Source: an uncultured Proteiniphilum sp. (GTDB lineage Bacteria > Bacteroidota > Bacteroidia > Bacteroidales > Dysgonomonadaceae). From it: a stretch of 64,000 bases of DNA. The notes beneath the pieces were generated by a model that was not told the DNA's origin, searched no databases, and saw only the letters and a program-made list of their open reading frames with translations. Each line of letters opens with the position of its first letter. The stretch's first letter is position 1. A program made the translations under genes and the position numbers. Below, one piece after another: positions 1 through 28,215 of the stretch. The stretch covers positions 28,516 through 92,515 of the forward strand of contig CAZAFR010000003.1 of assembly GCA_964484665.1 (NCBI GenBank). Direction: 5' to 3'.

Positions 1-225
1 AGAAGACTAGAACTAGCTTTCGAAGGAGTGAGATACTATGATTTGATGAGATGGGGAGAATTAGAAAGTGCTTTTAGTAAGGTGAAAAACATTCCTCTTG
101 AAAATGAAGGTAAACCCGTTGAATATAGTGCTATTTACCGTCCCGAAACTAAAGGTTACCTTCCAATTCCTGAGTCACAGGTTTTATTATCAGATGGTGT
201 TTTAAAACAAAATGAAGGTTGGTAA
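1..225 (+). CDS. RagB/SusD family protein, C-terminal end (gene starts before the window)
   Basis: Frame 1 from base 1 reads RRLELAFEGVRYYDLMRWG...IPESQV...LKQNEGW*, the typical SusD C-terminal motifs ERRxELAFEGxRxxDLxRW and LxQNxGW. Confidence 0.92.
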   Translation, partial: RRLELAFEGVRYYDLMRWGELESAFSKVKNIPLENEGKPVEYSAIYRPETKGYLPIPESQVLLSDGVLKQNEGW

Positions 226-247
226 AAATTTTTAAAACTTAAACTGA

Positions 248-1057
248 ATGAAAATGAAAAATATTATATTATTATTTGTCGCAGTGGTTGTAACTCTTGT
301 TTCTTGCGATCCTATAGAGAACAGGGACACATTACCTCCATTAGAAAATCCTGACAGAGTAGCTGAAATGATAAACCTAAAAGTGGAGAACACTTTTCCC
401 GGTGGAAACATTATAGCTCTAGGTGTAGATGAAGGGTTTCAGGTACATTGGGATGCAGAAGGCATAAACTCTTTTAAAAACAATGATACCATTCGATTAA
501 GAACTACAGGAGAGAAAACTATAATATGCAATGTTTTAACTAAAGGTGGTCAAGTTAGCATAGTAAGGACTGTAAATGTAACATCTGTACCAAATCTCGT
601 AGATGAACCACTTGCTTTTCTAATTGATTATTTTGGGGATGGAAAAACATGGGTATATGCTACTGATTATGGAGACGGTACACTGCATTGGTTCCTTTCG
701 GCACCATACTCATGGGAGGAAATTTGGTGGTTACCTATAGCAGATGGAGTTTCATCTGAAGATGGATTTCAAGCTGAATTGTTTTTTGAAAAAATTGATG
801 ATAAGTTATTCTTAACAGTAACAAATGCTCCTGGAGATGAACCACTTGTAAGTGAGTTTTTATTTAATTCTGAAGAGATGACCTTAACTGTTATCGATGA
901 TATATTCCCGGGAATGGATCATGCATACAAAGATACTTTTCAAGTTAAAATCCTTAATGAAAATGAATTGGCTCTATTTCAAGATGGTGCAGGTGCTGCT
1001 AAAAATACAGGTTGGACATGGAGATTCAAAAGGAAAGGATATAAATATCTAAATTGA
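248..1057 (+). CDS. PUL-associated lipoprotein, putative surface glycan-binding protein
   Basis: Hydrophobic signal ending in lipobox LVSC-D; lies directly after SusD; Trp-rich C-terminal half. Confidence 0.6.
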   Translation: MKMKNIILLFVAVVVTLVSCDPIENRDTLPPLENPDRVAEMINLKVENTFPGGNIIALGVDEGFQVHWDAEGINSFKNNDTIRLRTTGEKTIICNVLTKGGQVSIVRTVNVTSVPNLVDEPLAFLIDYFGDGKTWVYATDYGDGTLHWFLSAPYSWEEIWWLPIADGVSSEDGFQAELFFEKIDDKLFLTVTNAPGDEPLVSEFLFNSEEMTLTVIDDIFPGMDHAYKDTFQVKILNENELALFQDGAGAAKNTGWTWRFKRKGYKYLN

Positions 1058-1082
1058 AATAAAGCAAAATCGAAAATATAAA

Positions 1083-3383
1083 ATGAAAATAAAAAATTTA
1101 ATAGTTCTTACTATTTTAGTATTGTGTTCAACCCTGGCTATAAATGGACAAGGGAAAAATAATACTGCTAACATCGAAAAGGATTTCTTTCCTTTCTCAG
1201 TCTGGTACAGTGGTGGCAAAGCACGTGCACCAATGCTTAGTAAAATAACAGAATCCTCAGAAGCAGAGTGGAGAGCAGACCTGCAACAGATAAAAGATCT
1301 GGGATTTAATACAGTTAGAACTTGGGTTGAATGGGCAACTTGTGAGCCTGAACCGGGAAAATATAATTTTAAAAACCTGGAATTACTTATGAGTCTGGCT
1401 GAGGAAGTAGGTCTTAGAGTGTTTATACAGATATATGTCGACTCGGCACCCGATTGGGTAGCACATAATTTTCCTCATGCTCTTTTTGAGGCTCAAAGTG
1501 GGGATATTGTTGTACCACAATCAGCTCCCGGTGCTTGTATGGATAATAAGGAGGTCGAAGATGCCATTCTAAACTTCTATGCTGAGACTGCTAAGGTTGC
1601 AAATAAGTATCCCAATTTGTTTGGGTGGGACTTGTGGAGCGAACCTCATATTATCAACTGGGCTTCACTAGATTATGTGCCAAATATTCAGTTTTGTTTC
1701 TGCGATGGAACACAAAATAGATTCAGAAATTGGCTTAAAGACAAATACCAGACTCTTGAAAATTTAAATAGTGCCTGGTATCGAAATTTCACCGACTGGA
1801 ATCAGATTGAGGCACCTAGATTTAGTACAATTTTAAGTTATACAGATTTTATTGACTGGAAAACTTTTATTTACGAAAAGCTTGTGGGTGATATGCAAGC
1901 AAGGTATAATGCTATTAGAAAAGTTGATTCAACAAGTCTTATAACAGCTCATGCAGTTGGTGCATCTCTATTTCAGTCACCCCACGTTGGTGCAGGTGCT
2001 ACAGATGATTTTCTTATGGCTCGTCCATTGGACTATTATGGAGTGTCAATTTATCCAAAGCATAATAGGCCCGAGGGAGCATGGTCTACCACAACTCTAC
2101 GTACAGTGATGGATTTTACCAGAAGTGCTAATCGTGAAAGTGGGGGTTGGTTTGTTGGGGAATTACAAGCCGGTTTGGGTACTATATCTCTTTTAATTAG
2201 CGATCCGGTAACTTCAAATGATCACTCAATATGGGCATGGTCGGCAATTGCAAAAGGAGCTAAAGGTGTAAATATTTATGCATATTATCCAATGTCAACA
2301 GGTTATGAGGCCGGTGGATATGGTTTGATTAATCTTGACGGAACCTTAACAGAACGCTCTATAAATGCAGGTAAGATTGCTGATATTGTAAACAAAAATC
2401 AAAAACTTTTTCTAAATGGATTACCGGCAAAAGCTGAAGTGGGAATAGTGTATAACCCTTTGACTCAAATGGTGGGAGGAATGCAGAGACGAGATTATCC
2501 TGCTGCTATGAGTCAATCTTTAATAGGTTATTACCAATCTTTTGCAAATCATAATGTACCTGTGGATTTTATTCATAGGGAACATATTGAAAAGAAGGAG
2601 CTATCGCAATATAAGCTCATCATACTACCCTATCCTATTATGTTCACTAAGGAAGCTGCTGAAGGACTCAGAGAGTTTGTACAAAATGGAGGTTATGTTC
2701 TTGCTGAAGCAAGATTTGGATGGAATGATAATCGCGGATATGCGTCAGAAATTATTCCCGGTTTAGGTATGCATGATATATTTGGCGCCAGAGAAGATGA
2801 AGTAAGAATGCGAGAGAACGTTAATTTAACTTTAATAAAGGAGGAGCATCCTGTTCTTAAAGGATTCAATTCAGGCGATAAATTAAATGGTGCGTTGTAT
2901 TCTCAATCGGTAAAATTACTTGATAAAAGTAATGCAAAAGTTTTGGCCACTACTTCTGAAGGTGATCCTGCAATCGTAAGCTCAAATTACGGTAAAGGTG
3001 AAGCTATGCTTGCCGGTTCGTATCTAGGAATGGCAAATTTTAGTGAGATAGTACCAAATAACGATAAATTCTTCATAAATCTATTAGATTGGGCAAAAAT
3101 TGAACGTCCTTTTATTACTTCGCAAGATGGGAAAAGCAGCGATCAGGTTGAAGTCAGATTACAAAATACAGATAATGGATATATTCTTTTCTTAATTAAT
3201 CATAGTTTTAATAATGAGAAAATTGACATTGATCTGAAAGTTAATTCTGATGGTAATTTTCTTGTAAGAGATGTAATAAATGAAAAGAGTGAAAAAATAA
3301 AAAGTAGTGGCAATATTCTAAAGCTTAATTTATTAGCAAATAGTAGAAATGCCGGGGTTTTTGAAATTAATCGTGATGAATGA
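1083..3383 (+). CDS. GH42-like glycoside hydrolase (clan GH-A TIM barrel plus trimerisation domain), secreted
   Basis: Signal peptide; DLQQIKDLGFNTVRTWVEWATCEPEPGKYNF, APDWV, WDLWSEP (acid/base), CFC, GELQAG (nucleophile); C-terminal LIILPYP...GG trimerisation domain. Confidence 0.8.
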   Translation: MKIKNLIVLTILVLCSTLAINGQGKNNTANIEKDFFPFSVWYSGGKARAPMLSKITESSEAEWRADLQQIKDLGFNTVRTWVEWATCEPEPGKYNFKNLELLMSLAEEVGLRVFIQIYVDSAPDWVAHNFPHALFEAQSGDIVVPQSAPGACMDNKEVEDAILNFYAETAKVANKYPNLFGWDLWSEPHIINWASLDYVPNIQFCFCDGTQNRFRNWLKDKYQTLENLNSAWYRNFTDWNQIEAPRFSTILSYTDFIDWKTFIYEKLVGDMQARYNAIRKVDSTSLITAHAVGASLFQSPHVGAGATDDFLMARPLDYYGVSIYPKHNRPEGAWSTTTLRTVMDFTRSANRESGGWFVGELQAGLGTISLLISDPVTSNDHSIWAWSAIAKGAKGVNIYAYYPMSTGYEAGGYGLINLDGTLTERSINAGKIADIVNKNQKLFLNGLPAKAEVGIVYNPLTQMVGGMQRRDYPAAMSQSLIGYYQSFANHNVPVDFIHREHIEKKELSQYKLIILPYPIMFTKEAAEGLREFVQNGGYVLAEARFGWNDNRGYASEIIPGLGMHDIFGAREDEVRMRENVNLTLIKEEHPVLKGFNSGDKLNGALYSQSVKLLDKSNAKVLATTSEGDPAIVSSNYGKGEAMLAGSYLGMANFSEIVPNNDKFFINLLDWAKIERPFITSQDGKSSDQVEVRLQNTDNGYILFLINHSFNNEKIDIDLKVNSDGNFLVRDVINEKSEKIKSSGNILKLNLLANSRNAGVFEINRDE

Positions 3384-4356
3384 CAAAAAGATTATTTCAA
3401 TAGATATTGGAGGTACAAAGATATCCGGAGCGTTGTTTTCTTTTGATGGAAAAATTCATCAGTTCACTAAAGTATTATTGGAAGGGCGCTCCGGTAAAGA
3501 TGCCGGTAAACTTGTAATTGAATTATTAGACGAGCTTATTGCAGCTTCAGGAAATAATATTTTGAAGATTACCGGTATTGGAATATCTGTACCCGGCATA
3601 GTTTATTCTGAAGATGGCAGCGTTTGGGCACCTAATATTCCCGGTTGGGAAAAGTTTCCTCTGCAAAAAATAATAAAGGAACATCTGAATAACAATAAGA
3701 TTCATGTAATCATTGAATCAGACAGATCATGTTACTTATGTGGAGAACTATGGCAGGGTGCTGCAAAAGGCTCAAAAAATGCTGTTTATATTGGCGTTGG
3801 TACCGGAATAGGTGCAGGAATCATGATAGATAATAATCTTCTTCATGGCATCGGTGATATAGCTGGTTCTGTGGGGTGGATGGCTTTGCAATTACCTTAT
3901 AATGATCTGTACGACAGGTGCGGATGTTTTGAATATTATGCATCTGGCAACGGTATACACGAAAGGGCATCAGATTTAATCTTGCAAGACTCAGATTATA
4001 ACGGAGTTTTAAAAGATAAAGATATCAAAGACCTAACGACTAAAGATGTTTTTGAGGCTTTTGATAAGAATGATTCTATTGCTACCGAAGTTATAGGCAA
4101 AGCAGTGCAAATGTGGGGTATGGCAAGCGCTAATATTGTTAGCCTACTTAATCCTGAAAAAATTATCTGGGGCGGAGGTGTTTTTGGTCCTGCTGTAAAA
4201 TTGATTCCTGAGATATATAAGGAATCATGCAAATGGGCTCAACCTATAAGTATTAGGCAAGTTGAATATCTCCCTTCGGAATCTTCAGATGAAGCTGGGT
4301 TAAAAGGTGCGGCGTATTTAGTATTAAAACATATTTTTCATGAAACAATCATATAA
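3376..4356 (+). CDS. ROK family sugar kinase
   Basis: SIDIGGTKI, GISVPG, ESD, GVGTGIGAGI, CGCFEYYASG, GGG motifs. Start placed at ATG 3376, overlapping the GH42 stop. Confidence 0.9.
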   Translation: MNDKKIISIDIGGTKISGALFSFDGKIHQFTKVLLEGRSGKDAGKLVIELLDELIAASGNNILKITGIGISVPGIVYSEDGSVWAPNIPGWEKFPLQKIIKEHLNNNKIHVIIESDRSCYLCGELWQGAAKGSKNAVYIGVGTGIGAGIMIDNNLLHGIGDIAGSVGWMALQLPYNDLYDRCGCFEYYASGNGIHERASDLILQDSDYNGVLKDKDIKDLTTKDVFEAFDKNDSIATEVIGKAVQMWGMASANIVSLLNPEKIIWGGGVFGPAVKLIPEIYKESCKWAQPISIRQVEYLPSESSDEAGLKGAAYLVLKHIFHETII

Positions 4357-5509
4357 CAAAACTAAAGTATTTATTGCAGCATGTATTGGAATGTCGTTCT
4401 TTGGAATATCAATGATTGTCCTTGGATCGATTCTGCCCATTTTAGCCGCTAAATTCACTCTCAGCACCGCTCAAGCAACATCACTTGTGGCATTTTTGCC
4501 TATCGGGATGTTGATTGGCTCGGTGATATTTGGTCCCATTGTAGACCAACAAGGTTATAAGGGCCTTTTAATAATCAGTAGTTTATTGATATTGATAGGC
4601 TTAGAAGGTGTGGCATTTGTTGAGAATATACTATTAGTTCAACTTAGTATTTTTATCATCGGTTTCGGTGGTGGAATTCTAAATGGTTTAACTAATGCCT
4701 TAGTGTCTGTTGTGTACGATGATTCAAAGAGAAATTCAATGTTGAGTTTTCTGGGTGTATTTTATGGATTAGGGGCTTTAGGAATTCCGGTTCTGCTTAG
4801 TACTTTGTTGAAAAACTATACTCTACAACAAATTTTCTCCGGTATTGGTGTTGTCATGATGATACTTATACTATATTGTATAATAATTAAGTATCCTGAA
4901 GCGACACAAAAACAGGGATTTCCTATTTCAGCAGGATTTAAACTGTTAAAAAGAAAAGACTTATTACTATTGTCATTTATTCTGTTCTTTCAGAGTGGTA
5001 TAGAGGGAGTAGTTAATAATTGGACTGTTTTCTATCTTACTGATTTTGGCTTCTTGGATCATTCAAAAGCATTGCTTACTATAACAGTTATGACTGCAAG
5101 TTTAACAGTAGCACGAATTGTTCTTGTATCACTACTTAAAATATTTTCTCAGAATAGGATTTTGATAACAAGTGTATTGATAGCTATTGCGGGAGTATTG
5201 CTAATGATACAACCTAATTATGTTACTTCTCTTATAGGTATGATGCTAGTAGGATTTGGTATTGCATCCACATTTCCAATTATATTGGGAATAATTGGAA
5301 CAAAATTCCCAACTATGTCGGGTACCGCTTTCAGCGTAGCATTAGTTTTAGCTTTGTTGGGTAATAATATAATGAATAGCGTAACAGGCATTTGGCTGGA
5401 TAAAAGTGGTGCTTATGTTTACCCATTAATTCTAGTTATTTGCTTTGGAATTATATTATTAATTTTCGGACAAGTAAATAAACCAAATCAAACATTTACA
5501 AAGACTTAA
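4340..5509 (+). CDS. MFS sugar transporter (FucP/GlcP-like)
   Basis: About 12 hydrophobic segments; GPIVDQQGYK loop motif; FFQSGIEG..NNW; overlaps the ROK stop. Confidence 0.85.
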   Translation: MKQSYNKTKVFIAACIGMSFFGISMIVLGSILPILAAKFTLSTAQATSLVAFLPIGMLIGSVIFGPIVDQQGYKGLLIISSLLILIGLEGVAFVENILLVQLSIFIIGFGGGILNGLTNALVSVVYDDSKRNSMLSFLGVFYGLGALGIPVLLSTLLKNYTLQQIFSGIGVVMMILILYCIIIKYPEATQKQGFPISAGFKLLKRKDLLLLSFILFFQSGIEGVVNNWTVFYLTDFGFLDHSKALLTITVMTASLTVARIVLVSLLKIFSQNRILITSVLIAIAGVLLMIQPNYVTSLIGMMLVGFGIASTFPIILGIIGTKFPTMSGTAFSVALVLALLGNNIMNSVTGIWLDKSGAYVYPLILVICFGIILLIFGQVNKPNQTFTKT

Positions 5510-5585
5510 AGTCGATTTTATATATTTCTTTATCATTTATTTAAAAGAACAATAATAACTTAATAACAATTTAAATTAAACAATT

Positions 5586-6347
5586 ATGTTAGCAAAAGAG
5601 TGGTTAAAAAATGCATACGAGGTGATGAATAATATCGAAGACACCCAATTGGATAATGTAAGAAAAGCAGCTGAAATAATGGCTGACTCGATTGAAGCAG
5701 GACGTTGGGTGCACACCTTTGGATGTGGTCATGCAACAATTCCTGTAGAAGAAATGTATCCTCGTATTGGTGGTTTTGTAGGATTTCATCCGCTTGTTGA
5801 ACTCCCGCTTACCTTTTTTACTCAAATTAAGGGTCAAATGGGTATACATCAATTCCTGTTTTTGGAAAGAGCCGAAGGCTATGGAGTTGAAATTATGAAA
5901 AACTATGATTTCGATTCAAAAGATTGTATCTGGTTATTTTCACATACAGGAATAAATGCTGTAAATATTGATGTTGCCTTAGAAGCTAAAAAGAGAGGGA
6001 TGAAGGTGATTGTTTATGGATCTGCTGAACAAACTTCTGGTAAGAAACCACGCCATTCTTGTGGAAAGAACTTGTTTGAACTTGCCGATGTTATCGTGGA
6101 TTCTTGCGTACCACTGGAGGATGCATCTGTACCACTTAAAAATCATTTTGATAAAGTTGGTCCTCTTTCAACAATTGGTTTTATAACTTTAGTTTGGGTT
6201 ACAATAACTACTGTTGCTGAAATTCTTGCAGACAGAGGTGTAAAACTGTTTATTCATCCATCGCATAATATTCCGGGTGACACAACTGCTCATGATCGTC
6301 TTGATAATGCATTATCAGAGTACAAAAAACGAGTTAAGGTTTTATAA
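5586..6347 (+). CDS. SIS-domain sugar-phosphate protein, UPF0309 (NagS/SCO4393-like) family
   Basis: HTFGCGHA...YPRIGG, FSHTGIN, IVDSCVPLEDA and GPLSTI motifs in a single-SIS ~250-aa protein. Confidence 0.8.
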   Translation: MLAKEWLKNAYEVMNNIEDTQLDNVRKAAEIMADSIEAGRWVHTFGCGHATIPVEEMYPRIGGFVGFHPLVELPLTFFTQIKGQMGIHQFLFLERAEGYGVEIMKNYDFDSKDCIWLFSHTGINAVNIDVALEAKKRGMKVIVYGSAEQTSGKKPRHSCGKNLFELADVIVDSCVPLEDASVPLKNHFDKVGPLSTIGFITLVWVTITTVAEILADRGVKLFIHPSHNIPGDTTAHDRLDNALSEYKKRVKVL

Positions 6348-6404: not shown

Positions 6405-6448
6405 ACAACCTCTTCCGAGGCAATTATTTGTCGGAAGAGGTTGTTTTA
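6405..6448 (+). terminator. Intrinsic terminator of the PUL operon
   Basis: Perfect 14-bp inverted repeat ACAACCTCTTCCGA / TCGGAAGAGGTTGT followed by T-rich sequence. Confidence 0.85.
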
Positions 6449-6542
6449 TTTTGATTCCGCTTTAACTATTTAGAAAATTATCACTATTTTTGTGAAAACC
6501 GATACAATCAAACAAATACTTATTATAAATACAAAATTTCTT

Positions 6543-7796
6543 ATGACATCCAGAAGACAATTTTTAAAAACATTAGGCGGGGTATCTCTACTGACTATTG
6601 TTCCCCGAAATGTTTTGGGGAGGGGCATGATTGCTCCAAGTGATCAGCTCACTAAAGGGATTATAGGTCTTGGGGGAATGGGTCGCGGACACATTCCTTA
6701 TGATAATACCAGGGTAGTTGCAATGTGTGATGTTGATAAAAATCATCTCTCTCAGGCAGCCGCATTGGTTAAAGACAAAATAAATCTTTATCATGACTTT
6801 AGAGATCTTATCATTGATAAGAATGTTGATATTGTTCATATTGCTACACCTCCTCACTGGCATGGAATTATGTCGGTTGAAGCTGCTAAAGCAGGTAAGG
6901 ATATTTTCTGCGAAAAGCCGATGACTCGCACAATTGGTGAAGGAAAAAGAGTTAGAGAGGCAATTAAACTGCACGGGAACATTTTCAGACTTAACACATG
7001 GTTTAGATTCAGAGGTCAGTTTTACGGACTGGGTACACCGGTAAAACCTCTTAAAAAACTAGTTGACAGCGGTATGCTTGGTTGGCCTCTTAAGGTTACC
7101 ATCAGTAAGCATACCGGTTTCGACTGGAAATTCTACTGGGTGGGTAAAACCGACCTTAAACCACAGCCTGTTCCTTCTGAACTAGATTATGATATGTGGT
7201 TGGGACCGGCCCCTTATAAGCCTTATAATGTCCATAGGGTACATCAGACTTTCAGAGGTTACTGGGATTACGATGGTGGCGGTCTTGGTGATATGGGACA
7301 GCATTATATTGATCCTGTACAATATATGCTTGGCAAAGATAATACTAGCCCTGTAAAGGTTGAAGTTGATGCCCCTCAGCAGCATTTTGATGCTGTAGGT
7401 ACATGGCGTAGCATAACTTACACATATGAGGACGGTTGTCAGATTGTACTTTGGGGTGGTGATTATGGTGAACAAAATACACCTTATATAGCAGGTCCAA
7501 AGGGTAATGTTTATAAAAACTTTGTTTGCGATATCCCGGATTGGGAAAAGAAACTGGCGGATTTCCCTGAACCAAAAGAACAAAACACTGATTTTATTGA
7601 AAGTATTCACAACAGGCAAAAGTATGCACTAAATGAGATAAACGGACATCGTTCAGCAACAATAGTAAATATGGGTGCTGTGGCTCTTCAACTTAATAGA
7701 ACACTGGAGTATGATCCGGTTAAGGAGATGTTTATCAACGATGAGGAAGCAAACAGATTTATTAATCAACCAATGCGTGCACCTTGGTCTATTTAA
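6543..7796 (+). CDS. Gfo/Idh/MocA family NAD(P)-dependent oxidoreductase with Tat signal
   Basis: MTSRRQFLK twin-arginine signal (start placed at 6543); GIIGLGGMG, IATPPHWH, CEKP, GGGLGDMGQHYID. Confidence 0.9.
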   Translation: MTSRRQFLKTLGGVSLLTIVPRNVLGRGMIAPSDQLTKGIIGLGGMGRGHIPYDNTRVVAMCDVDKNHLSQAAALVKDKINLYHDFRDLIIDKNVDIVHIATPPHWHGIMSVEAAKAGKDIFCEKPMTRTIGEGKRVREAIKLHGNIFRLNTWFRFRGQFYGLGTPVKPLKKLVDSGMLGWPLKVTISKHTGFDWKFYWVGKTDLKPQPVPSELDYDMWLGPAPYKPYNVHRVHQTFRGYWDYDGGGLGDMGQHYIDPVQYMLGKDNTSPVKVEVDAPQQHFDAVGTWRSITYTYEDGCQIVLWGGDYGEQNTPYIAGPKGNVYKNFVCDIPDWEKKLADFPEPKEQNTDFIESIHNRQKYALNEINGHRSATIVNMGAVALQLNRTLEYDPVKEMFINDEEANRFINQPMRAPWSI

Positions 7797-7814
7797 TTTA
7801 TAAATTTTGTAACA

Positions 7815-10800
7815 ATGAAAAATGTAAAAATAATTTTAATAAGTTTTTGTTTATCTTTAGTGGCTGGATTATATGCTCAGATGCCACAGGGGAGAACAAA
7901 AGCTACAATCGTTGCTGATGCACTTGCCCAACTTCCTGCAAACTCAAACAAAAAATATAATCAAACTATTGCAGACTTGGTTTCAACAGGTGAAGAGGGT
8001 CTAATTGACCTGATAAACAGATTACATGCACCGGGTCAAGGAAGTAATGAGACTGTTGAGTATGCTATTAGTGGATGGACTCACTACGTTGCCGGTGATA
8101 ACGCTTTGCGTACTGCTACTGCAAGCACATTCAGTAAAGCATTAAGCAGTCCTCTCGATAAGGATATTAAAGCTTATATTATCCGTCAGATTCGTACTAT
8201 TGGTAGTGATGATAATGTAGAGACTCTCTCCGGCTTCCTAACAGATGAATATCTGTCTGATCCTGCAGCACAAGCTCTTGCAAGCATAGGAACCACAAAA
8301 GCAAAAGCTACATTGTTGAGTTATCTTACTCCTTCTGCCTCTGAATTGATTAAATTGAATTTAATTAATGCTTTGGGACATACTGATTACAGTATTGCTG
8401 AACCGGTTATTTTAGGGATGCTGAATGATACTCAATCTGAAAAAATGCAACGGGTAATATTTGCTGCTTTGGGTAACCTTGGTACTAAGGAATCTTTAAA
8501 ATTGTTGCGTAATCAAGCTGAAAGGTCCGATTTTGCCTATCAAAAAAATAATGCAACTGAAGCGTATATCAACTTACTTGGCCGATTAAATATCAGTGAA
8601 CCTAAAACTGTAAAGAAGGAGGCTGAAAAATTACTCAAATCTGCTGACAAATTAAACAGACAAGACCTAAAAATATCTGCAACCAAAATACTCTTAACAC
8701 AGCCTTCAGCAGATGTTTCTAAGATACTTAATAGTGTAATTAAAGATGGCGATTTGACATATATTTCGGGTGTTCTAAATATATTTCCATTTGAAAATAA
8801 CACTAAATCTGTTCAACTAATAAAAAAGGAGATTACTTCAAACAAATCTCCTGAAGTGCAGACCGCACTGATTTACTGGTTAGGTAATAATCCGTCTGCA
8901 AATGCTACAGCACTCTTAACACCTCATGCAAGTTCATCTAACAAAATGGTGCAAAAGGCTGCTACGCTGGGACTGACTAAGGTTGGCGGTAACGATGCTT
9001 TAATATCGCTTGCAGGCTTACTTAAAAGCAGTGATGAGGCATCAGTTACTCTTGCCAAAAATGCTCTTATGAGTTTTGATGGTGATATAGCTTACACGCT
9101 TGCATCAGTATTTAACGACTCAGAAACAATAGGAAAAAAGGCTATCCTCGAACTGATCTCAAATCGTAAAATAGAGGGACAGTACAATTTAGTTTACAAC
9201 CAGATGTTTTCTGATGACAAAGAGGTTAAAGCAGTTGCAGCTAATACATTGAAGGATGTTTCTACAGATAAAAATCTTCCTGATCTGTTTACACTTCTTG
9301 AGCAGTCAGAAACGGAGTACGTTCCCGCCATTCAGCAAGCTATTAATGCTGCATTAAAAAAACTGCCTAATAACGAGCAGATAGAGATAGTAACCGACCG
9401 AATCAACAAATCTGCCAATAAGCATCTGTATTACAGTGCACTTGCAGGTATTGGCTCTTCCGATGCAATAGATAAAATCACTAATGCTTACAAAAACGAA
9501 TCAGGTTCAAACAAAGATGCTGCATTTGATGCACTTTCAAATATCAATTCATTTCACGTGATTTATCCTATGCTTGATATAGTTCGTTCAAGCAATAACA
9601 AACAGGAGATTGAGAAAGTTACAGATGCTATTATCGATGTTGTTAGCAGATCAAATGAAACAGGTGCTATTAAATATCTATACCTGAGAGAAGCAATGGA
9701 GTTTGCACAAAACGACCGACAGAAAAACAGTATACTCAAACAATTGGGTAGCACTGGTCAGTATCAAGCAATGCTCTTTGCCGCTTCTTTTATGGATGTT
9801 GCTGAGTTAAGTGAATCTGCAGCAATTACTGTTATGAATATCGGTATCTCTGATCCTTCATTCGCAGGTGAAGCAACAACCGCTGCTCTAAACAAAGCAG
9901 CTAAAACGCTATCTAACCCTGATGCAGATTATCAGCGTCAGTCGATTAACAAGTTCCTTGCTGAAAACCCAACTGATGGTGGTTTTGTTTCAATTTTCAA
10001 TGGTAAAAACCTTGATGGTTGGAAGGGTCTGGTTGCCAACCCCATAGAGAGGGCAAAAATGAGCAAGAAAGAGTTGGCTGCTGCTCAGGTAAAAGCTGAT
10101 CAGCAGATGGATATGGACTGGAAGGTTGAAGATGGTTTGATTATATTTGATGGTAAAGGTTATGATAATCTCTGCACAAAAAAACTGTATGGTGATTTTG
10201 AAATGTTGGTTGACTGGAAATTATATCCCGGTAATGAACCTGATGCAGGAATTTATCTTCGTGGTACTCCGCAAGTTCAAATATGGGATACAGCAAGAGT
10301 TAATGTTGGTGCACAGGTTGGTTCCGGTGGTCTCTATAATAACCAAGTACATATGAGTAAACCGCTTAAAGTGGCCGACCAGAAAGTGGGTGAATGGAAC
10401 AGCTTCCTTATAAAAATGGTGGGCGAGAGAGTATCTGTATGGCTAAATGGTGAACTAGTTACTGATAATGTAGTATTAGAAAATTTCTGGGACAGAACAC
10501 AACCCATTTTCCCCATTGAGCAGATTGAACTTCAGGCTCATGGCAGTAAAGTAGCATATCGCGATATATATATAAAGGAAATTCCTCGACCAGAGCCATT
10601 TACACTATCAAAAGAAGAAGAATCAGAAGGTTTTAAAATCCTTTTCGACGGTACAAACCTTGACCAATGGAACGGAAATAAAGATGACTACGCAGTTGAA
10701 AGCGGAACAATAACTGTTTATCCCGGTAAAAGTACTGGAGGAACCAGAAACTTATATACTAATGATCAGTTCGATAATTTTGTCTTCCGTTTCGAATTCA

Positions 10801-11207
10801 TGCTCACCCCAGGTGCAAACAATGGATTAGGTATCCGCACACCACTGGAAGGCGATGCTGCTTATGTTGGAATGGAACTTCAAATACTTGATAATGATGC
10901 ACCTATATATGAAAATCTACAGATATATCAGTATCACGGTTCAGTATATGGGGTAATACCTGCTAAAAGAGGAGCCTTGAAACCATTAGGTGAGTGGAAC
11001 TATGAGGAAGTTATTGCTGATGGTGATAATATTAAAGTCATCCTCAATGGTACCACAATCGTTGATGGAAATATCCGCGAAGCTTCAAAAAATGGCACTG
11101 TAGATGGTCGTGATCACCCGGGCTTACTTAACAAGACCGGTCACATCGGATTCCTCGGACATGGTTCTACGGTTAAATTCAAAAATATCCGAGTAAAAGA
11201 ACTTTAA
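7815..11207 (+). CDS. Secreted HEAT-repeat protein with two C-terminal DUF1080 (3-keto-glycoside hydrolase/hydratase-like) domains
   Basis: Signal peptide; about 700 aa of helical repeats (AAQALASIG, ALGNLG); then FNGKNLDGW...GEWN...GERVSVWLNG...IELQAHG and FDGTNLDQW...GEWN...GHIGFLGHG. Confidence 0.88.
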   Translation: MKNVKIILISFCLSLVAGLYAQMPQGRTKATIVADALAQLPANSNKKYNQTIADLVSTGEEGLIDLINRLHAPGQGSNETVEYAISGWTHYVAGDNALRTATASTFSKALSSPLDKDIKAYIIRQIRTIGSDDNVETLSGFLTDEYLSDPAAQALASIGTTKAKATLLSYLTPSASELIKLNLINALGHTDYSIAEPVILGMLNDTQSEKMQRVIFAALGNLGTKESLKLLRNQAERSDFAYQKNNATEAYINLLGRLNISEPKTVKKEAEKLLKSADKLNRQDLKISATKILLTQPSADVSKILNSVIKDGDLTYISGVLNIFPFENNTKSVQLIKKEITSNKSPEVQTALIYWLGNNPSANATALLTPHASSSNKMVQKAATLGLTKVGGNDALISLAGLLKSSDEASVTLAKNALMSFDGDIAYTLASVFNDSETIGKKAILELISNRKIEGQYNLVYNQMFSDDKEVKAVAANTLKDVSTDKNLPDLFTLLEQSETEYVPAIQQAINAALKKLPNNEQIEIVTDRINKSANKHLYYSALAGIGSSDAIDKITNAYKNESGSNKDAAFDALSNINSFHVIYPMLDIVRSSNNKQEIEKVTDAIIDVVSRSNETGAIKYLYLREAMEFAQNDRQKNSILKQLGSTGQYQAMLFAASFMDVAELSESAAITVMNIGISDPSFAGEATTAALNKAAKTLSNPDADYQRQSINKFLAENPTDGGFVSIFNGKNLDGWKGLVANPIERAKMSKKELAAAQVKADQQMDMDWKVEDGLIIFDGKGYDNLCTKKLYGDFEMLVDWKLYPGNEPDAGIYLRGTPQVQIWDTARVNVGAQVGSGGLYNNQVHMSKPLKVADQKVGEWNSFLIKMVGERVSVWLNGELVTDNVVLENFWDRTQPIFPIEQIELQAHGSKVAYRDIYIKEIPRPEPFTLSKEEESEGFKILFDGTNLDQWNGNKDDYAVESGTITVYPGKSTGGTRNLYTNDQFDNFVFRFEFMLTPGANNGLGIRTPLEGDAAYVGMELQILDNDAPIYENLQIYQYHGSVYGVIPAKRGALKPLGEWNYEEVIADGDNIKVILNGTTIVDGNIREASKNGTVDGRDHPGLLNKTGHIGFLGHGSTVKFKNIRVKEL

Positions 11208-18899: not shown

Positions 18900-20183
18900 A
18901 TGATTATCAAGAAATTTACTCCGTTACTATTTTCATTTGTTTTTTTCAACATATGTTTAATGTTTCCTCAACAACGGAATGTTAATTATGATGAGGATAA
19001 AGTAAGTCCTTACTCACTTCCATCAATCTTAACATCTCAAAGTGGCATGATCATAAATAACGTGAATGATTGGGAAGAATTCAGAAGGCCCGAAATATTA
19101 TCTAGTTTTACTAATCATGTTTACGGTCGCATCCCCGGTGAACTTGATACAATGAAAGTGGAATTAACTGAACAGGGTGTTTTTTTAAATGGCAAAGCAA
19201 AACGTAAACAGATCATATTAACATTTATCAAAAACGGCAAAGTATTAAATGCAGAGATTTTAATCTATTTGCCCAACTCAGATAAGAAAGCACCTGTATT
19301 TTTGGGCTATAATTTTCAAGGGAATCATACCATATCAAACGACAAAGACATAAACATTACTAAATCGTGGGTGCCTATAAATCATGAGATAGGAGTTGAA
19401 TCTAATACAGCCGTTGAAGATTCGCGAGGAAGTATGAAAAAAAGATGGTCTGTTGAGAGAATTATAGAAGCCGGTTATGGTCTTGTCACATTATACCGGG
19501 GGGATATTGATCCCGATAAAAATGATTTTAGTGACGGCATCCATAATCTTTTCTACACAAAGGAGCAGACTAAACCTAAACCTGACGAATGGGGAACAAT
19601 TGCAGCGTGGAGTTGGGGACTATCAAGAGTTATGGATTATCTCGAAACAGATGAAGATATAGATAATAAAAAAGTAATTGTATTTGGTCACTCCAGATTA
19701 GGAAAAACCTCACTCTGGGCAGCAGCTACTGACAAGCGCTTTGCGGGTTGTATTTCAAACAATTCGGGAGCAATGGGAGCTGCTCTTTCAAGACGTAACT
19801 TTGGTGAAACTGTGGAAGTAATTAATACTACATTCCCTTACTGGTTTTGCGAAAACTTCAAGAAATACTCCAACAAAGAACATTTCTTGCCCATAGACCA
19901 ACATATGCTTATCTCACTGATTGCACCCCGTCCGGTATATGTTGCCAGTGCAACAGAGGATCTGTGGGCAGACCCTAAAGGTGAATTTTTATCAGCAAAA
20001 GAAGCTTCAGTAGTATACAATTTATATGGTATAACGGGACTCTCACCTATCAAGATGCCCGAACCGGATTGCCCGATCATTGATAAAGTTAGTTATCATC
20101 TTAGAACAGGTATACATGGTGTCACAGATTATGACTGGGAACAGTATATTAAATTTGCTAAGTTTAATAACCTATACAGGTAA
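18900..20183 (+). CDS. CE15 glucuronoyl-esterase-like alpha/beta hydrolase
   Basis: GHSRLGK nucleophile motif, WGTIAAWSWG, DQHMLISLIAPRPVYVASATEDLWADPKGEF, GIHGVTDYDW; signal peptide. Confidence 0.88.
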   Translation: MIIKKFTPLLFSFVFFNICLMFPQQRNVNYDEDKVSPYSLPSILTSQSGMIINNVNDWEEFRRPEILSSFTNHVYGRIPGELDTMKVELTEQGVFLNGKAKRKQIILTFIKNGKVLNAEILIYLPNSDKKAPVFLGYNFQGNHTISNDKDINITKSWVPINHEIGVESNTAVEDSRGSMKKRWSVERIIEAGYGLVTLYRGDIDPDKNDFSDGIHNLFYTKEQTKPKPDEWGTIAAWSWGLSRVMDYLETDEDIDNKKVIVFGHSRLGKTSLWAAATDKRFAGCISNNSGAMGAALSRRNFGETVEVINTTFPYWFCENFKKYSNKEHFLPIDQHMLISLIAPRPVYVASATEDLWADPKGEFLSAKEASVVYNLYGITGLSPIKMPEPDCPIIDKVSYHLRTGIHGVTDYDWEQYIKFAKFNNLYR

Positions 20184-20343: not shown

Positions 20344-21177
20344 TTATTTACATAATGCTCCCGCACCTAATATGCCAATGTTATTTAAATCAGAAGTCAA
20401 TATTTTTATCTTTTCAATAGATTTAGGATAAGGAAAATCTTTAAGATTATCGTACATAGATTTCTCAAACAAATTAAAAGACTGAGTAATTGACCCTCCC
20501 AAAATTATAGCTTGTGGATCAAGAATCAGCAGAATAATTTTTATCAAAACTGACATGTGTTTCCCATATTCATTATATATCTCTCTAGCGTTAGGATCAT
20601 TATTTTTTGCTTTTAAAGCTATGTCATATGCAGACTGACCATATTGTTCCATAAAAAATCTACTTCCGCAATAATGCTCAAGTATAGAATCAAGATAAGG
20701 TAATTCACCAAACTCTCCCGAACCGCAGTTTGAATCATAAAGCAAATGATTATCCTGAATAATTCCACCACCAACACCCGTACCTAATGTAATGCCTACA
20801 AAATTGCTAAACTCTTTTCCTTTGCCAAATATCTTTTCGCCGTATGCAAAACAATTTGCATCATTATCAATAAAAACAGGTACATTAAATTCATTCTCCA
20901 GAATTTGCTTCAAGTGAACTTCATCCCAGTCTTTTATATTCTGAACATTGTAAACTATACCTTTTTCCCTGTCAACAACACTCGGAACTCCAACTCCAAT
21001 AGCTGTAGTGTCGTCTGTAATAAGTTTATTAATACTTTGTTTAAGTACATTTAATGTAGTTTCGCCCCCTTCATGTGCTAAGGTATCTACTTTTTCCTGC
21101 ATTACAATTGAGTTACCCTCAATTCTTCCACTCACGATAGATGTACCACCGATATCAATTCCAAGATAATTCCTCAT
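20344..21177 (-). CDS. ROK family glucokinase-like protein
   Basis: GIDIGGT, GVGVPS, DNDANC, LGTGVGGG, GEFG, ILGGS motifs. Confidence 0.9.
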   Translation of the reverse strand: MRNYLGIDIGGTSIVSGRIEGNSIVMQEKVDTLAHEGGETTLNVLKQSINKLITDDTTAIGVGVPSVVDREKGIVYNVQNIKDWDEVHLKQILENEFNVPVFIDNDANCFAYGEKIFGKGKEFSNFVGITLGTGVGGGIIQDNHLLYDSNCGSGEFGELPYLDSILEHYCGSRFFMEQYGQSAYDIALKAKNNDPNAREIYNEYGKHMSVLIKIILLILDPQAIILGGSITQSFNLFEKSMYDNLKDFPYPKSIEKIKILTSDLNNIGILGAGALCK

Positions 21178-26763: not shown

Positions 26764-28215
26764 TTATTTTATTGTCTCCGAATGATAGAAAAACGCAGGG
26801 GTGCAAATTTCACTTTCATTGTGGAAGGAGTCTGAGGCGGTGACAAAATAGTAGTATGCCTTATCATTATCTTCAGCTGTGAAATATAATGCTGTTTCTC
26901 GCAATCCTGTAGCTATTATGTTTTCTGCTATATCTCTATCAAAATTATCTGTTTCACTTCTGTAAACGTTGTAGGTTACTCTGCTATTGTCTATCTTTTC
27001 CCATTTTAATTCGAATAGTCCATTTGATAGTTTTTCTGCTCGCAAGTCTATTGGCGTATCGGGTATCGAGTCGGACAACCATGTCATCGGGGGGAGCTTT
27101 GAAGGGTATTTATATTTTTCTTCTAATTTATTGAGTATACCTTTGTAGTTAGATAGTATATTTTTTGTGCGAAAATATGCTTGACCGTTAACTTGTTTTT
27201 CTCTTGAATAATCTACTTGCTCTATTATATCTTTTGAGCTCCAGCCTAATTCTATCATCTGGAATGCACCGAGCCCGGGGACTAAAATTCTATTATTACT
27301 GTTGAGTGCCCAGTCGTCGAGGTAAGGATAAAACAATTCATCTTTGTAATACATCATTGGGTAGAGGGCATCATGCTTGCCTGCTTTCATCCATTTGCCG
27401 GCATCTTGGAAAACAGTTTCTAGTGCTGTCCAACCTCTGCCTCGTTCATTTATAGTTCTGTATCGCCCTAAAGGAGAGCTGCTTACTTGTACCCATGGCT
27501 TTTGTTTCTTTATCAAGTCGTATACTCTAGTCACGAATCGTGTTATATTGTTTCTTCTCCAATCTGCGCGGGATTGTCCTTCACCATAAAGTCGGTAGAG
27601 TCCGTCGTCGGGAAATTTTCCTCTGTTGTCAGGGTATCTTATATAATCAAAATGAATTCCATCAACATCGTAATTGGATATTATCTCTTCAACAATGGAA
27701 ATGAGATAATCGTCTGTTCTGGGGTGACCGGGGTCAAGAAACCACTCTCCTTTGAACTTTTTTGTGATGGAGGGATTCTTTTTTACGACTGATTTTGAGC
27801 CTAAACTTTTAACATAGCGATCTCCTCCTAAGGGATAGGTTACTAACCAAGCGTGGCATTCAATTCCTCTTTTATGTGACTCTTCGATTACAAAGGCTAG
27901 TGGATCAAAATCAGGTGCTCCGGGACGTTTAGGTGCTATTATTGACGACATAGGCTCTATATCAGATTTATAGAATACTTCTCCACGTGCACGGGTTTGA
28001 AACATTATAGTATTGAAGTTGTATTTCTTCAATGAATCTAATATGGATACAAGTTCTTTTTTTTGAACTTCCTGATTTGTTCTGTTTGTTGGCCAATCTA
28101 GGCCATAGTTTGTGGTTAGCCAAACAGCTCTCACTTCCGTAGCAGGTATTTCGGAGAGGATTACATCAACCGAACTAAATAACAACAGAATGAGCAAAAT
28201 AAATATTTTGTTCAT
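26764..28215 (-). CDS. GHL10/DUF187 (YngK-like) glycoside hydrolase with C-terminal FN3-like domain
   Basis: EVRAVWLTT...LDWP, FDPLAF...HKRGIECHAW, YDVDGIHFDYIRYP, WRRNNIT. Confidence 0.88.
   Translation of the reverse strand: MNKIFILLILLLFSSVDVILSEIPATEVRAVWLTTNYGLDWPTNRTNQEVQKKELVSILDSLKKYNFNTIMFQTRARGEVFYKSDIEPMSSIIAPKRPGAPDFDPLAFVIEESHKRGIECHAWLVTYPLGGDRYVKSLGSKSVVKKNPSITKKFKGEWFLDPGHPRTDDYLISIVEEIISNYDVDGIHFDYIRYPDNRGKFPDDGLYRLYGEGQSRADWRRNNITRFVTRVYDLIKKQKPWVQVSSSPLGRYRTINERGRGWTALETVFQDAGKWMKAGKHDALYPMMYYKDELFYPYLDDWALNSNNRILVPGLGAFQMIELGWSSKDIIEQVDYSREKQVNGQAYFRTKNILSNYKGILNKLEEKYKYPSKLPPMTWLSDSIPDTPIDLRAEKLSNGLFELKWEKIDNSRVTYNVYRSETDNFDRDIAENIIATGLRETALYFTAEDNDKAYYYFVTASDSFHNESEICTPAFFYHSETIK

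Follow-up and report, generated by a model that had tools for sequence, protein, structure and literature searches.

The window analysed here, a stretch of 64,000 nucleotides from an uncultured Proteiniphilum sp. of the Dysgonomonadaceae (contig CAZAFR010000003.1; G000:C3:28516-92515), holds at its 5′ end the distal half of a SusC/SusD polysaccharide utilisation locus (PUL) controlled by an extracytoplasmic function (ECF) sigma factor and its anti-sigma factor. In this locus a glycoside hydrolase related to family GH42 is combined with a ROK-family sugar kinase, a permease of the MFS type and a UPF0309 protein with one SIS domain, and the evidence suggests an amino-sugar PUL with a catabolic route made up of non-orthologous enzymes. 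Orthologous PULs in the Marinilabiliales carry GH9, NagA, NagX-like and GH18 genes, which points to β-linked glucosamine (GlcN)/N-acetylglucosamine (GlcNAc) glycans, rather than galactosides, and we infer from the predicted genes that the window's locus acts on such a glycan. Partly de-N-acetylated chitin/chitosan-type oligosaccharides, for example those of fungal walls, are tentatively favoured as its target, along with the full route set out below. As judged by alignment, the catalytic residues of the GH42-like, ROK and SIS proteins are intact.

Architecture of the locus

Protein families were assigned by Pfam and NCBIfam profile searches, and the upstream stretch of the same contig was read together with the window. 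The locus comprises the following features, with negative numbers representing window-equivalent positions:

-6853 to -6260, upstream: ECF sigma factor (Pfam Sigma70_r4_2)
-6168 to -4984, upstream: FecR anti-sigma factor (Pfam FecR)
-4857 to -1381, upstream: SusC (Pfam STN, Plug and CarboxypepD_reg)
1 to 225, + strand: 3′ end of the SusD-like gene (Pfam SusD_RagB, 9e-13)
248 to 1057, + strand: lipoprotein of 269 amino acids (aa), with lipobox Cys20, in the SusE/F position
1083 to 3383, + strand: GH42-like glycoside hydrolase of 766 aa (Pfam Glyco_hydro_42, 1.8e-44, and GH42M, 1.3e-20)
3349 to 4356, + strand: ROK-family sugar kinase of 335 aa, or 326 aa from the Met at 3376 (Pfam ROK, 4e-48)
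4340 to 5509, + strand: MFS permease of 389 aa (Pfam MFS_1, 3e-28)
5586 to 6347, + strand: single-domain SIS protein of UPF0309/PRK02947, 253 aa (Pfam SIS_2, 3.5e-40; NF002805)
6405 to 6452, + strand: intrinsic terminator (14-bp stem, ~10-nt loop, U-tract; from sequence and fold)

The complete SusD-like gene encodes 530 aa and starts 1367 nt 5′ of the window edge, with its upstream portion matching Pfam SusD-like_3/SusD_RagB. SusC and SusD are adjacent, the regulator lies upstream and a GH42-like carbohydrate-active enzyme downstream, as is typical of a PUL, and the presence of the ECF sigma factor, FecR, the STN-domain SusC and the rest of SusD before the window edge therefore makes this a complete sigma/anti-sigma-controlled PUL. 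The original prediction had described a PUL with a complete intracellular route. The PUL stands, but it begins outside the window, and a signal peptide is visible at the N-terminus of the translated GH42-like protein; hydrolysis is therefore expected to be periplasmic, leaving only the ROK and SIS proteins as intracellular enzymes.

The six open reading frames from SusD to SIS are co-directional on the + strand and overlapping or tightly spaced, as had been predicted. The GH42-like and ROK genes overlap by 35 nt (8 nt with ROK counted from the Met at 3376, the consensus start of its family), ROK and MFS by 17 nt, and the remaining intergenic gaps measure 22, 25 and 76 nt. The single terminator claimed at 6405 was likewise confirmed by RNA folding, which yields a hairpin at 6405-6444 with a G+C-rich stem of 14 bp, followed by UUUUAUUUU, and a folding energy (dG) of -31.3 kcal/mol (z -5.28; 0/200 shuffles equally stable). 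A consensus terminator scan reported none near ~6405 because the ~10-nt loop exceeds the limit of that scan; given the stable hairpin and the U-tract, the terminator is therefore taken to be real.

Orthologous loci with exchanged hydrolases

The uptake genes of the window's locus recur in other orders next to a different hydrolase. In Marinilabilia salmonicolor, whose SusC, SusD and lipoprotein are 73, 73 and 64 % identical to those of the window, the gene order is SusC-SusD-lipoprotein-ROK-MFS-SIS-GH9-NagA-DUF5009-GH18. Prolixibacter bellariivorans (60, 66 and 53 %) has the order ECF-FecR-SusC-SusD-lipoprotein-ROK-MFS-SIS-GH9-NagA-DUF5009, preceded closely by GH20 and GH35 and lacking GH18 over the stretch that was read, while Limibacterium (74, 80 and 75 %) retains the arrangement of the window with its GH42-like gene and adds a creatininase-type amidohydrolase after SIS. 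As orthologous SusC/SusD/lipoprotein sets thus occur with either GH9 or the GH42-like gene, one uptake machinery is combined with different hydrolases in different orders.

The amidohydrolase of Prolixibacter is a true NagA (228 bits against an NCBIfam equivalog cut-off of 225.65 bits). Below their NCBIfam cut-offs, DUF5009 is similar to NagX, a transmembrane GlcN N-acetyltransferase, the GH18s of the sister loci are ChiD-like chitinases and not endo-β-N-acetylglucosaminidases, and the family CE4 proteins found beside SIS genes elsewhere are nearest to the N-deacetylases PdaB, PdaA, PgdA and NodB. GH20 and NagB are also among the neighbourhood genes. The amino-sugar reading of the original prediction thus draws support from its context of true NagA, CE4, NagX-like DUF5009, ChiD-like GH18, GH20 and NagB.

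The lipoprotein that is kept beside these orthologous SusC/SusD pairs has no Pfam or NCBIfam match and 27 homologues only. Its AlphaFold2 model, based on a 21-sequence alignment (pLDDT 82.9), predicts an Ig/PKD-like domain and a β-sandwich, and the best Foldseek match is the surface glycan-binding protein (SGBP) SGBP-B of Bacteroides fluxus (7kv7; E 6e-11, prob 1.0). On the basis of this model it is probably a surface glycan-binding protein in the SusE/F position and not an enzyme.

Distribution and neighbours of the ROK-MFS-SIS cassette

More than 5000 homologues of the SIS protein exist, at 75-83 % identity across the Bacteroidales, Cytophagales, Chitinophagales and Ignavibacteriales, and those of the 80 loci read are 74-93 % identical. 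In almost all of these 80 loci, from Bacteroidota and Ignavibacteriota, ROK, MFS and SIS occur in the same order (tblastn identities of 41-71 % for ROK and 33-81 % for MFS), the MFS gene always being found between or beside the other two. In the small number of loci that depart from this pattern MFS or ROK is missing, usually where the contig ends. ROK-MFS-SIS represents the conserved unit. The PRK02947 family is patchy, occurring in 6/19 genomes of the genus, in 0/12 other Bacteroidales families sampled and in no control genome, that of B. thetaiotaomicron included. No description of the ROK-MFS-SIS cassette or of the clade of its GH42-like partner was found in the literature on chitosan, GH9 and GlcN-kinase pathways of Bacteroidota, and nothing was found under the family name UPF0309.

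Within the genus every cassette-type SIS gene adjoins a GH42-like gene. A check of synteny, as proposed with the original prediction, showed that the GH42-ROK-MFS-SIS block recurs in five arrangements in the Dysgonomonadaceae, in two further, rearranged ones (41-45 % identity) on GC-rich contigs and in one MFS-GH42 fusion. The closest related loci and proteins belong to metagenome-assembled genomes of Fermentimonas (SIS 93 %, GH42-like 87-90 % identity), and the genomes counted here as the genus of the window include Proteiniphilum as well (G018). A second type of PUL (Proteiniphilum, G018 and G011), with SusC/SusD only 43/37 % identical, carries GH18 directly before GH42-like-ROK-MFS-SIS, while distant GH42-like members (41-45 % identity; contig GC 0.60) occur in the orders GDSL-GH42-ROK-SIS-MFS and SIS-GH42-ROK-MFS. 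In one complete Proteiniphilum genome (G018:C1:895196-898213) ~2 kb are inserted between MFS and SIS; a metagenomic copy that is identical in other respects lacks this insertion.

Neighbouring genes within 9 kb were counted over 90 SIS loci by clustering and annotation and with a tblastn panel. GH9 is found in 14/90 loci, frequently as a fusion with CE4 or with CE4 next in line, CE4 in seven, creatininase-family amidohydrolases in eight, NagA-like proteins in five, GH18 in four, and DUF5009 and DeoR in three each; an amide hydrolase stands beside SIS in about 20 of the 90. SusC is encoded in 13/90 loci, NagB in 17 (one Bacteroides lineage), and Porin_10 and the lytic transglycosylase SLT in 27-29 (one clade). 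The GH42-like gene occurs in five loci and never with GH9, an absence of overlap that is not statistically meaningful alone (expected 0.8). The cassette GH9s showed no specific resemblance to the known GH9 glucosaminidase or to any other solved or curated glucosaminidase, matching only endoglucanases and cellobiosidases (PDB endoglucanases at 1e-32). Within the genus the creatininase-type amidohydrolase does not co-vary with SIS (it is present in 17/19 genomes), and neither is the GH9-CE4 fusion correlated with SIS across the genomes.

The genome of the window itself encodes an unlinked GH9-CE4 fusion of 849 aa with a signal peptide (G000:C18:4276-6825) and an unlinked creatininase-family amidohydrolase (G000:C37:11967-12722), both homologous to cassette-adjacent genes in other genomes. 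In another genome of the genus (G014:C13:75812-78601) an 80-aa remnant of the cassette SIS, at 68 % identity and 30 % coverage, immediately precedes a GH9-CE4 fusion gene, as would be expected of a decayed SIS-GH9-CE4 arrangement.

The GH42-like hydrolase

The GH42-like protein exceeds the Pfam cut-offs for both GH42 (153 bits) and GH42M (74 bits). A search of 1.84 billion representatives returned 3914 relatives, and 112 sequences were aligned with MAFFT. The protein has no characterised close relative, the best solved one being 9ta3 (1.4e-30). In the alignment the acid/base residue E187, the nucleophile E360 and the Zn-type cysteines Cys152/205/207 are conserved. The residue ahead of the acid/base Glu is Ser in 18 near-clade rows (WSE; Ser186 in the window protein), Asn in 66 rows, among them those of solved GH42s, and Asp in five rows representing the wider family. 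The proteins with Ser at this position are here termed the S-E clade and those with Asn N-E. Of the 82 representatives that fall into one of these two classes, no fewer than 90 % keep E187 and E360. A HMMER pairwise register that places Asp ('ASLDY') at the acid/base position was rejected in favour of the gapless pairing of 'GWDLWSEP' with 'MWHVNNEY', which is backed by the 112-sequence alignment. A single-sequence AlphaFold model of the protein was discarded (pLDDT 36.7).

Two further motifs, which belong to the galactose site in GH42 structures, are missing from the window protein in a comparison covering two solved GH42s, the PDB rows being the only ones to show them. In the HMMER pairwise alignment to 9ta3, the Trp eight residues beyond the nucleophile (+8) is paired with Leu, and the His of the E-x-x-H motif (E-K-F-H) with Gly/Tyr, in keeping with the multiple alignment. 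These replacements bear on the alternative that this is an ordinary β-galactoside PUL, in which the GH42-like enzyme is the β-galactosidase that databases annotate and the downstream genes handle the hexose. The enzyme shares its TIM barrel and GH42M domains, the two catalytic Glu and the Cys cluster of the Zn site with GH42 β-galactosidases (9ta3, 4oif, 1kwg), and source annotations read 'β-galactosidase'. It differs from them in having Ser for Asn, in the two absent motifs, in being secreted and in its linkage to amino-sugar genes. Moreover, in orthologous PULs it is replaced by GH9, a family confined to gluco-configured substrates, linked Leloir genes are absent and ROK is not a galactokinase family, making a galactoside-specific locus very improbable.

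We infer instead, by analogy with the Thermococcales enzyme GlmA, that the GH42-like protein is an exo-β-glucosaminidase-type enzyme. In GlmA, Asp178 replaces the galactosidase Asn before the acid/base Glu and is essential for the recognition of GlcN (PMC6566704). The likeness to GlmA drawn in the original prediction holds as a working model, the N-E Asn being lost at the position of the GlmA Asp, but not as family membership; the protein scores 36.9 bits against a cut-off of 1500 for the GlmA family (GH35, NF041127) and matches the GlmA structure 5gsm merely at 1e-6, so that assignment to this family was rejected. Of the partners with which GlmA works, a kinase and a SIS protein adjoin the GH42-like gene; deacetylases (CE4, NagA, creatininase-type) are adjacent to the cassette in sister loci only and unlinked in the genome of the window.

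Several members of the S-E clade have no signal peptide. In some organisms the hydrolase would thus be cytoplasmic, with the permease importing the glycoside. In the metagenomic representative P0245 (1137 aa) a GH42-like domain of the S-E clade is fused to a cassette-type MFS (33 % identity, E 3e-31), although as a single predicted protein it may be an artefact of gene calling.

The SIS protein

The SIS protein belongs to UPF0309/PRK02947 (NF002805, 227.7 bits against a cut-off of 135), and its solved relatives are 3cvj (6e-25) and the Streptomyces protein NagS (SCO4393; PDB 9eol, 2e-22). It conserves His49, Arg60, the Glu of an LER motif, Asp179 and a C-terminal Asn, so that the residues essential in NagS (H53, R64, E94 and D179), along with N228, are all retained in pairwise and multiple alignments. 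As these are invariant across all UPF0309 subgroups, they do not discriminate between functions. Sites that contact the substrate in NagS have changed, with S54 replaced by Ala and S91 by Leu, and G227 is replaced by His. In a wider alignment the family falls into two groups. Group I contains NagS, 3cvj and a Bacteroidota subfamily encoded next to GH20, and group II comprises, among others, the SIS of the cassette and its homologues linked to GH42-like genes on GC-rich contigs. Group II proteins are recognised by PRxGG/S, by a Leu or Met residue at 91 and by an extended 78-90 loop.

These differences tell against a NagS-type route, in which the SIS protein would dehydrate GlcNAc 6-phosphate (GlcNAc-6P) to 6P-chromogen I. 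The two proteins share family, fold and essential residues, but only at ~30 % identity and in different subgroups, the window protein having PRxGG, Ala54, Leu91, the longer loop and a ROK-MFS context. NagS activity is restricted to Streptomycetaceae orthologues that are at least 58.7 % identical and divergently linked to dmdR1, while 26-36 %-identical homologues from three other genera were inactive in vitro and in vivo (PMC12680351). The NagS product is furthermore toxic and not a catabolic intermediate. Dehydration of this type is accordingly highly unlikely for the cassette, and the 'NagS-like' label of the original prediction is not upheld.

A second part of that prediction, a route that bypasses NagA and NagB, is not supported either. 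The genome of the window encodes NagA (281.8 bits), NagB (405.8 bits) and MurQ (307.9 bits), and the SIS protein therefore replaces neither NagB nor MurQ. MurQ (TIGR00274) is a separate gene (C15:27439-28188), and identity of the SIS protein with MurQ was rejected, as it matched PRK02947 only and not TIGR00274. Among 401 high-quality Bacteroidota genomes, 32 (~8 %, both subgroups counted) contain PRK02947; a NagB-family match is found in 32/32 of these and in 184/369 of the negative genomes (Fisher 8e-10, kinship ignored), and displacement of NagB by SIS was therefore rejected.

The same co-occurrence would be expected if the SIS protein fed NagB, as it would in a salvage of cell-wall sugars. 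The PUL or cassette would then take up de-N-acetylated or modified muropeptide sugars (GlcN, muramic acid, possibly muramic δ-lactam), with SIS acting as a MurQ-like C3 lyase/etherase that yields GlcN 6-phosphate (GlcN-6P) or GlcNAc-6P for NagB or NagA. UPF0309 has been placed next to MurQ, and the two share a chemistry of C2 deprotonation and β-elimination (PMC12680351). Creatininase-family hydrolases, which act on cyclic amides, recur beside the cassette, and the CE4 partners score best against the peptidoglycan and spore-cortex de-N-acetylases PdaB, PdaA and PgdA, although far under the cut-offs (66 vs 237 bits). Porin_10 and SLT follow the cassette in 27-29 loci, but their synteny is fixed within one clade and therefore counts as roughly one event. 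Canonical MurQ is already present in every genome of the genus, GH9, the GH42-like protein and ChiD-like GH18 are not known muramidases, and the locus encodes no stem-peptide amidase or peptidase. Cell-wall salvage is thus considered improbable.

Some related observations concern other loci. In the clade of the Rikenellaceae/Muribaculaceae type with fixed synteny, the NAD salvage genes pncB and pncA precede the cassette, and Porin_10 and the SLT lytic transglycosylase come after it. A different UPF0309 subfamily with group I motifs (33-34 % identity to the SIS protein) is encoded next to GH20 (G276:C9:98779-99492; G204:C1:540076-540765). It comprises the highest-scoring PRK02947 matches (genus g51) in genomes with weak NagB-family matches only, where it may stand in for NagB. 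In the genome of the window, MurQ lies beside a distant DUF5009/NagX-like gene (24.6 % identity; G000:C15:27439-30232), which may form a separate cluster for the recycling of cell-wall sugars.

The kinase and the permease

The ROK protein (Pfam, 164.8 bits) is an atypical member of its family, as judged from its motifs. The catalytic Asp in 'SDR..GE' is kept, while the sugar-binding ExGH and Zn-binding Cys/His motifs of canonical members (glucokinase, NagK, NanK) are replaced. In an alignment of 75 cassette ROKs 'GA.GW' occurs instead of 'GExGH', and a single Cys is left of CxCGxxGC, both motifs being retained in the other ROK of the genome (C37). The protein scores below all NCBIfam equivalog cut-offs. 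The permease is weakly TsgA/FHS-like (NCBIfam TsgA, 62 bits, below cut-off) and is proposed, from its family and position, to import the released sugar.

Both proteins could alternatively serve a neutral β-glucoside route, in which the GH42-like or GH9 enzyme frees glucose from cello- or β-glucan oligosaccharides and the cassette comprises a glucose permease, a glucokinase and a hexose-6-phosphate isomerase. Consistent with this are the endoglucanase-like GH9s, one locus with a GH3 gene between the GH42-like and ROK genes, a lipoprotein fold resembling β-glucan SGBP-B, the glucokinases that are the best PDB and NCBIfam neighbours of ROK, and the SIS fold, which is that of sugar-phosphate isomerases. 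However, no GH16, 17, 30 or 158 was seen in the annotated cassette loci, which have true NagA, NagX-like, GH18, GH20 and CE4 proteins instead, and the kinase has lost both ExGH, the motif that binds glucose, and the Zn motif. The SIS relative NagS binds GlcNAc-6P and N-acetylmannosamine 6-phosphate only, and neither glucose 6-phosphate nor fructose 6-phosphate (PMC12680351), and a dedicated step of the phosphoglucose isomerase type would be redundant. This route is judged quite unlikely.

Proposed route and its standing

In the amino-sugar route favoured here, the SGBP-like lipoprotein and SusD would bind the glycan and SusC would import the oligomers. The periplasmic GH42-like enzyme may act as an exo-β-hexosaminidase of the glucosaminidase type, in the role that GH9 or GH9-CE4 would have in sister loci and GlmA has in the Thermococcales. 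The released amino sugar would be taken up by the MFS permease and phosphorylated at O6 by the atypical ROK kinase, and the UPF0309 SIS protein would convert the 6-phosphate by abstracting the C2 proton of the open-chain sugar. A deaminating isomerisation to fructose 6-phosphate and ammonium, analogous to that of GlmD or NagB-II, is the favoured form of this last step; nearly as likely, SIS may act on an atypical amino-sugar 6-phosphate to give a compound that NagA or NagB of the genome can use. Every step of this flow is conjectural. The ecology fits the proposed substrate, as Fermentimonas and Proteiniphilum were enriched in, and dominated, an anaerobic consortium degrading fungal biomass (PMC12997835).

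Several findings weigh against the amino-sugar route. Its theme derives from the sister loci and not from the window's own locus, which encodes no deacetylase, NagA, GH18 or GH20, and the lack of overlap between GH9 and the GH42-like gene carries little statistical meaning, as given above. The cassette GH9s are closest to endoglucanases, the best PDB match of ROK is the glucokinase 2qm1 (2.6e-35), and the nearest fold to the lipoprotein is an SGBP of Bacteroides β-glucan PULs. Ser186 occupies the position of GlmA Asp178, yet Ser is not Asp, and no compensating acidic residue was identified in the GH42-like protein. Finally, with NagB already in the genome a second GlcN-6P deaminase would be redundant, and NagB is enriched, not missing, in PRK02947-positive genomes.

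SIS is the most conserved protein of the cassette, and it occurs in genomes that already hold NagA, NagB and MurQ. Bacterial hexosamine catabolism is generally attributed to NagA and NagB, with the addition of MurQ, AgaS and NagB-II. It is somewhat unlikely that group II SIS proteins catalyse an amino-sugar 6-phosphate reaction other than NagA deacetylation, NagB deamination, MurQ ether cleavage or NagS dehydration and that the S-E clade represents a new glycosidase specificity; that the reaction of the SIS protein is itself new is likewise rather doubtful. If both were so, a further entry route for hexosamines would be carried on a mobile ROK-MFS-SIS cassette, and the S-E clade would represent the first GH42-related exo-β-glucosaminidase and a functional equivalent of the GH9-CE4 enzymes. 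Should the amino-sugar route hold, anaerobic Bacteroidota would degrade chitin or chitosan by the deacetylate-then-cleave route known so far mainly from hyperthermophilic archaea, and the GH42 clan would gain a new specificity. Functions could then be given to thousands of proteins annotated 'β-galactosidase' or 'sugar isomerase domain', with relevance to how necromass of fungi and bacteria is turned over in digesters and guts.

Comparison with known systems

The logic of the cassette loci is shared with the Thermococcales chitin pathway, which consists of the deacetylase Tk-Dac, GlmA, a GlcN kinase and the SIS deaminase GlmD. In both, the chain would be deacetylated, terminal GlcN freed by a GH42-type TIM-barrel enzyme that has lost the N-E Asn, and the sugar phosphorylated and converted by a SIS protein, and in sister loci a CE4 deacetylase is fused to the glycosidase or encoded alongside it. 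The window differs in its glycosidase, which is GH42-like and not GH35, has Ser in place of Asp and is predicted to be periplasmic, and in its ROK kinase, its SusC/SusD setting and its single-domain UPF0309 SIS protein. The Thermococcales kinase is ADP-dependent, and GlmD is a two-SIS protein of the GlmS type.

The MurT-MurK-MurQ system of Tannerella forsythia, also of the Bacteroidota, similarly combines an inner-membrane transporter, a sugar 6-kinase and a SIS-fold lyase for amino-sugar salvage. It differs in gene order, and its MurQ belongs to TIGR00274. Identification of the cassette as MurTKQ was rejected, since MurK is not a ROK protein by sequence and the genome has its separate MurQ on C15.

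As in the nag cluster of the Shewanella/Xanthomonas type, the cassette pairs an MFS permease with a cytoplasmic kinase and a SIS enzyme and involves no phosphotransferase system, and the sister PULs add true NagA and NagX-like DUF5009. The comparators in that cluster, NagP, NagK and a two-domain PF01380 NagB-II, contrast with a SIS_2/UPF0309 protein and a kinase devoid of canonical ROK sugar and Zn motifs in the window, where the locus also has neither NagA nor NagX.

Flanking genes

Genes of the oxidative (3-keto) glycoside pathway flank the PUL on both sides. The 3′ flank (6492-11207, + strand) encodes a GFO/IDH/MocA oxidoreductase with a twin-arginine translocation signal, resembling the glycoside 3-dehydrogenase BT_2158 (138 bits, below cut-off), and a HEAT-repeat protein of 1130 aa with a 3-keto-disaccharide hydrolase domain. 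Another SusD, three to four GFO/IDH/MocA proteins and a xylose-isomerase-like TIM barrel are encoded in the 5′ flank (G000:C3:10516-21505). Further into the window, a glucuronyl-esterase-like protein is encoded at 18900-20183, another ROK protein, shorter than the first, at 20344-21177 on the minus strand, and a GHL10-family protein at 26764-28215.

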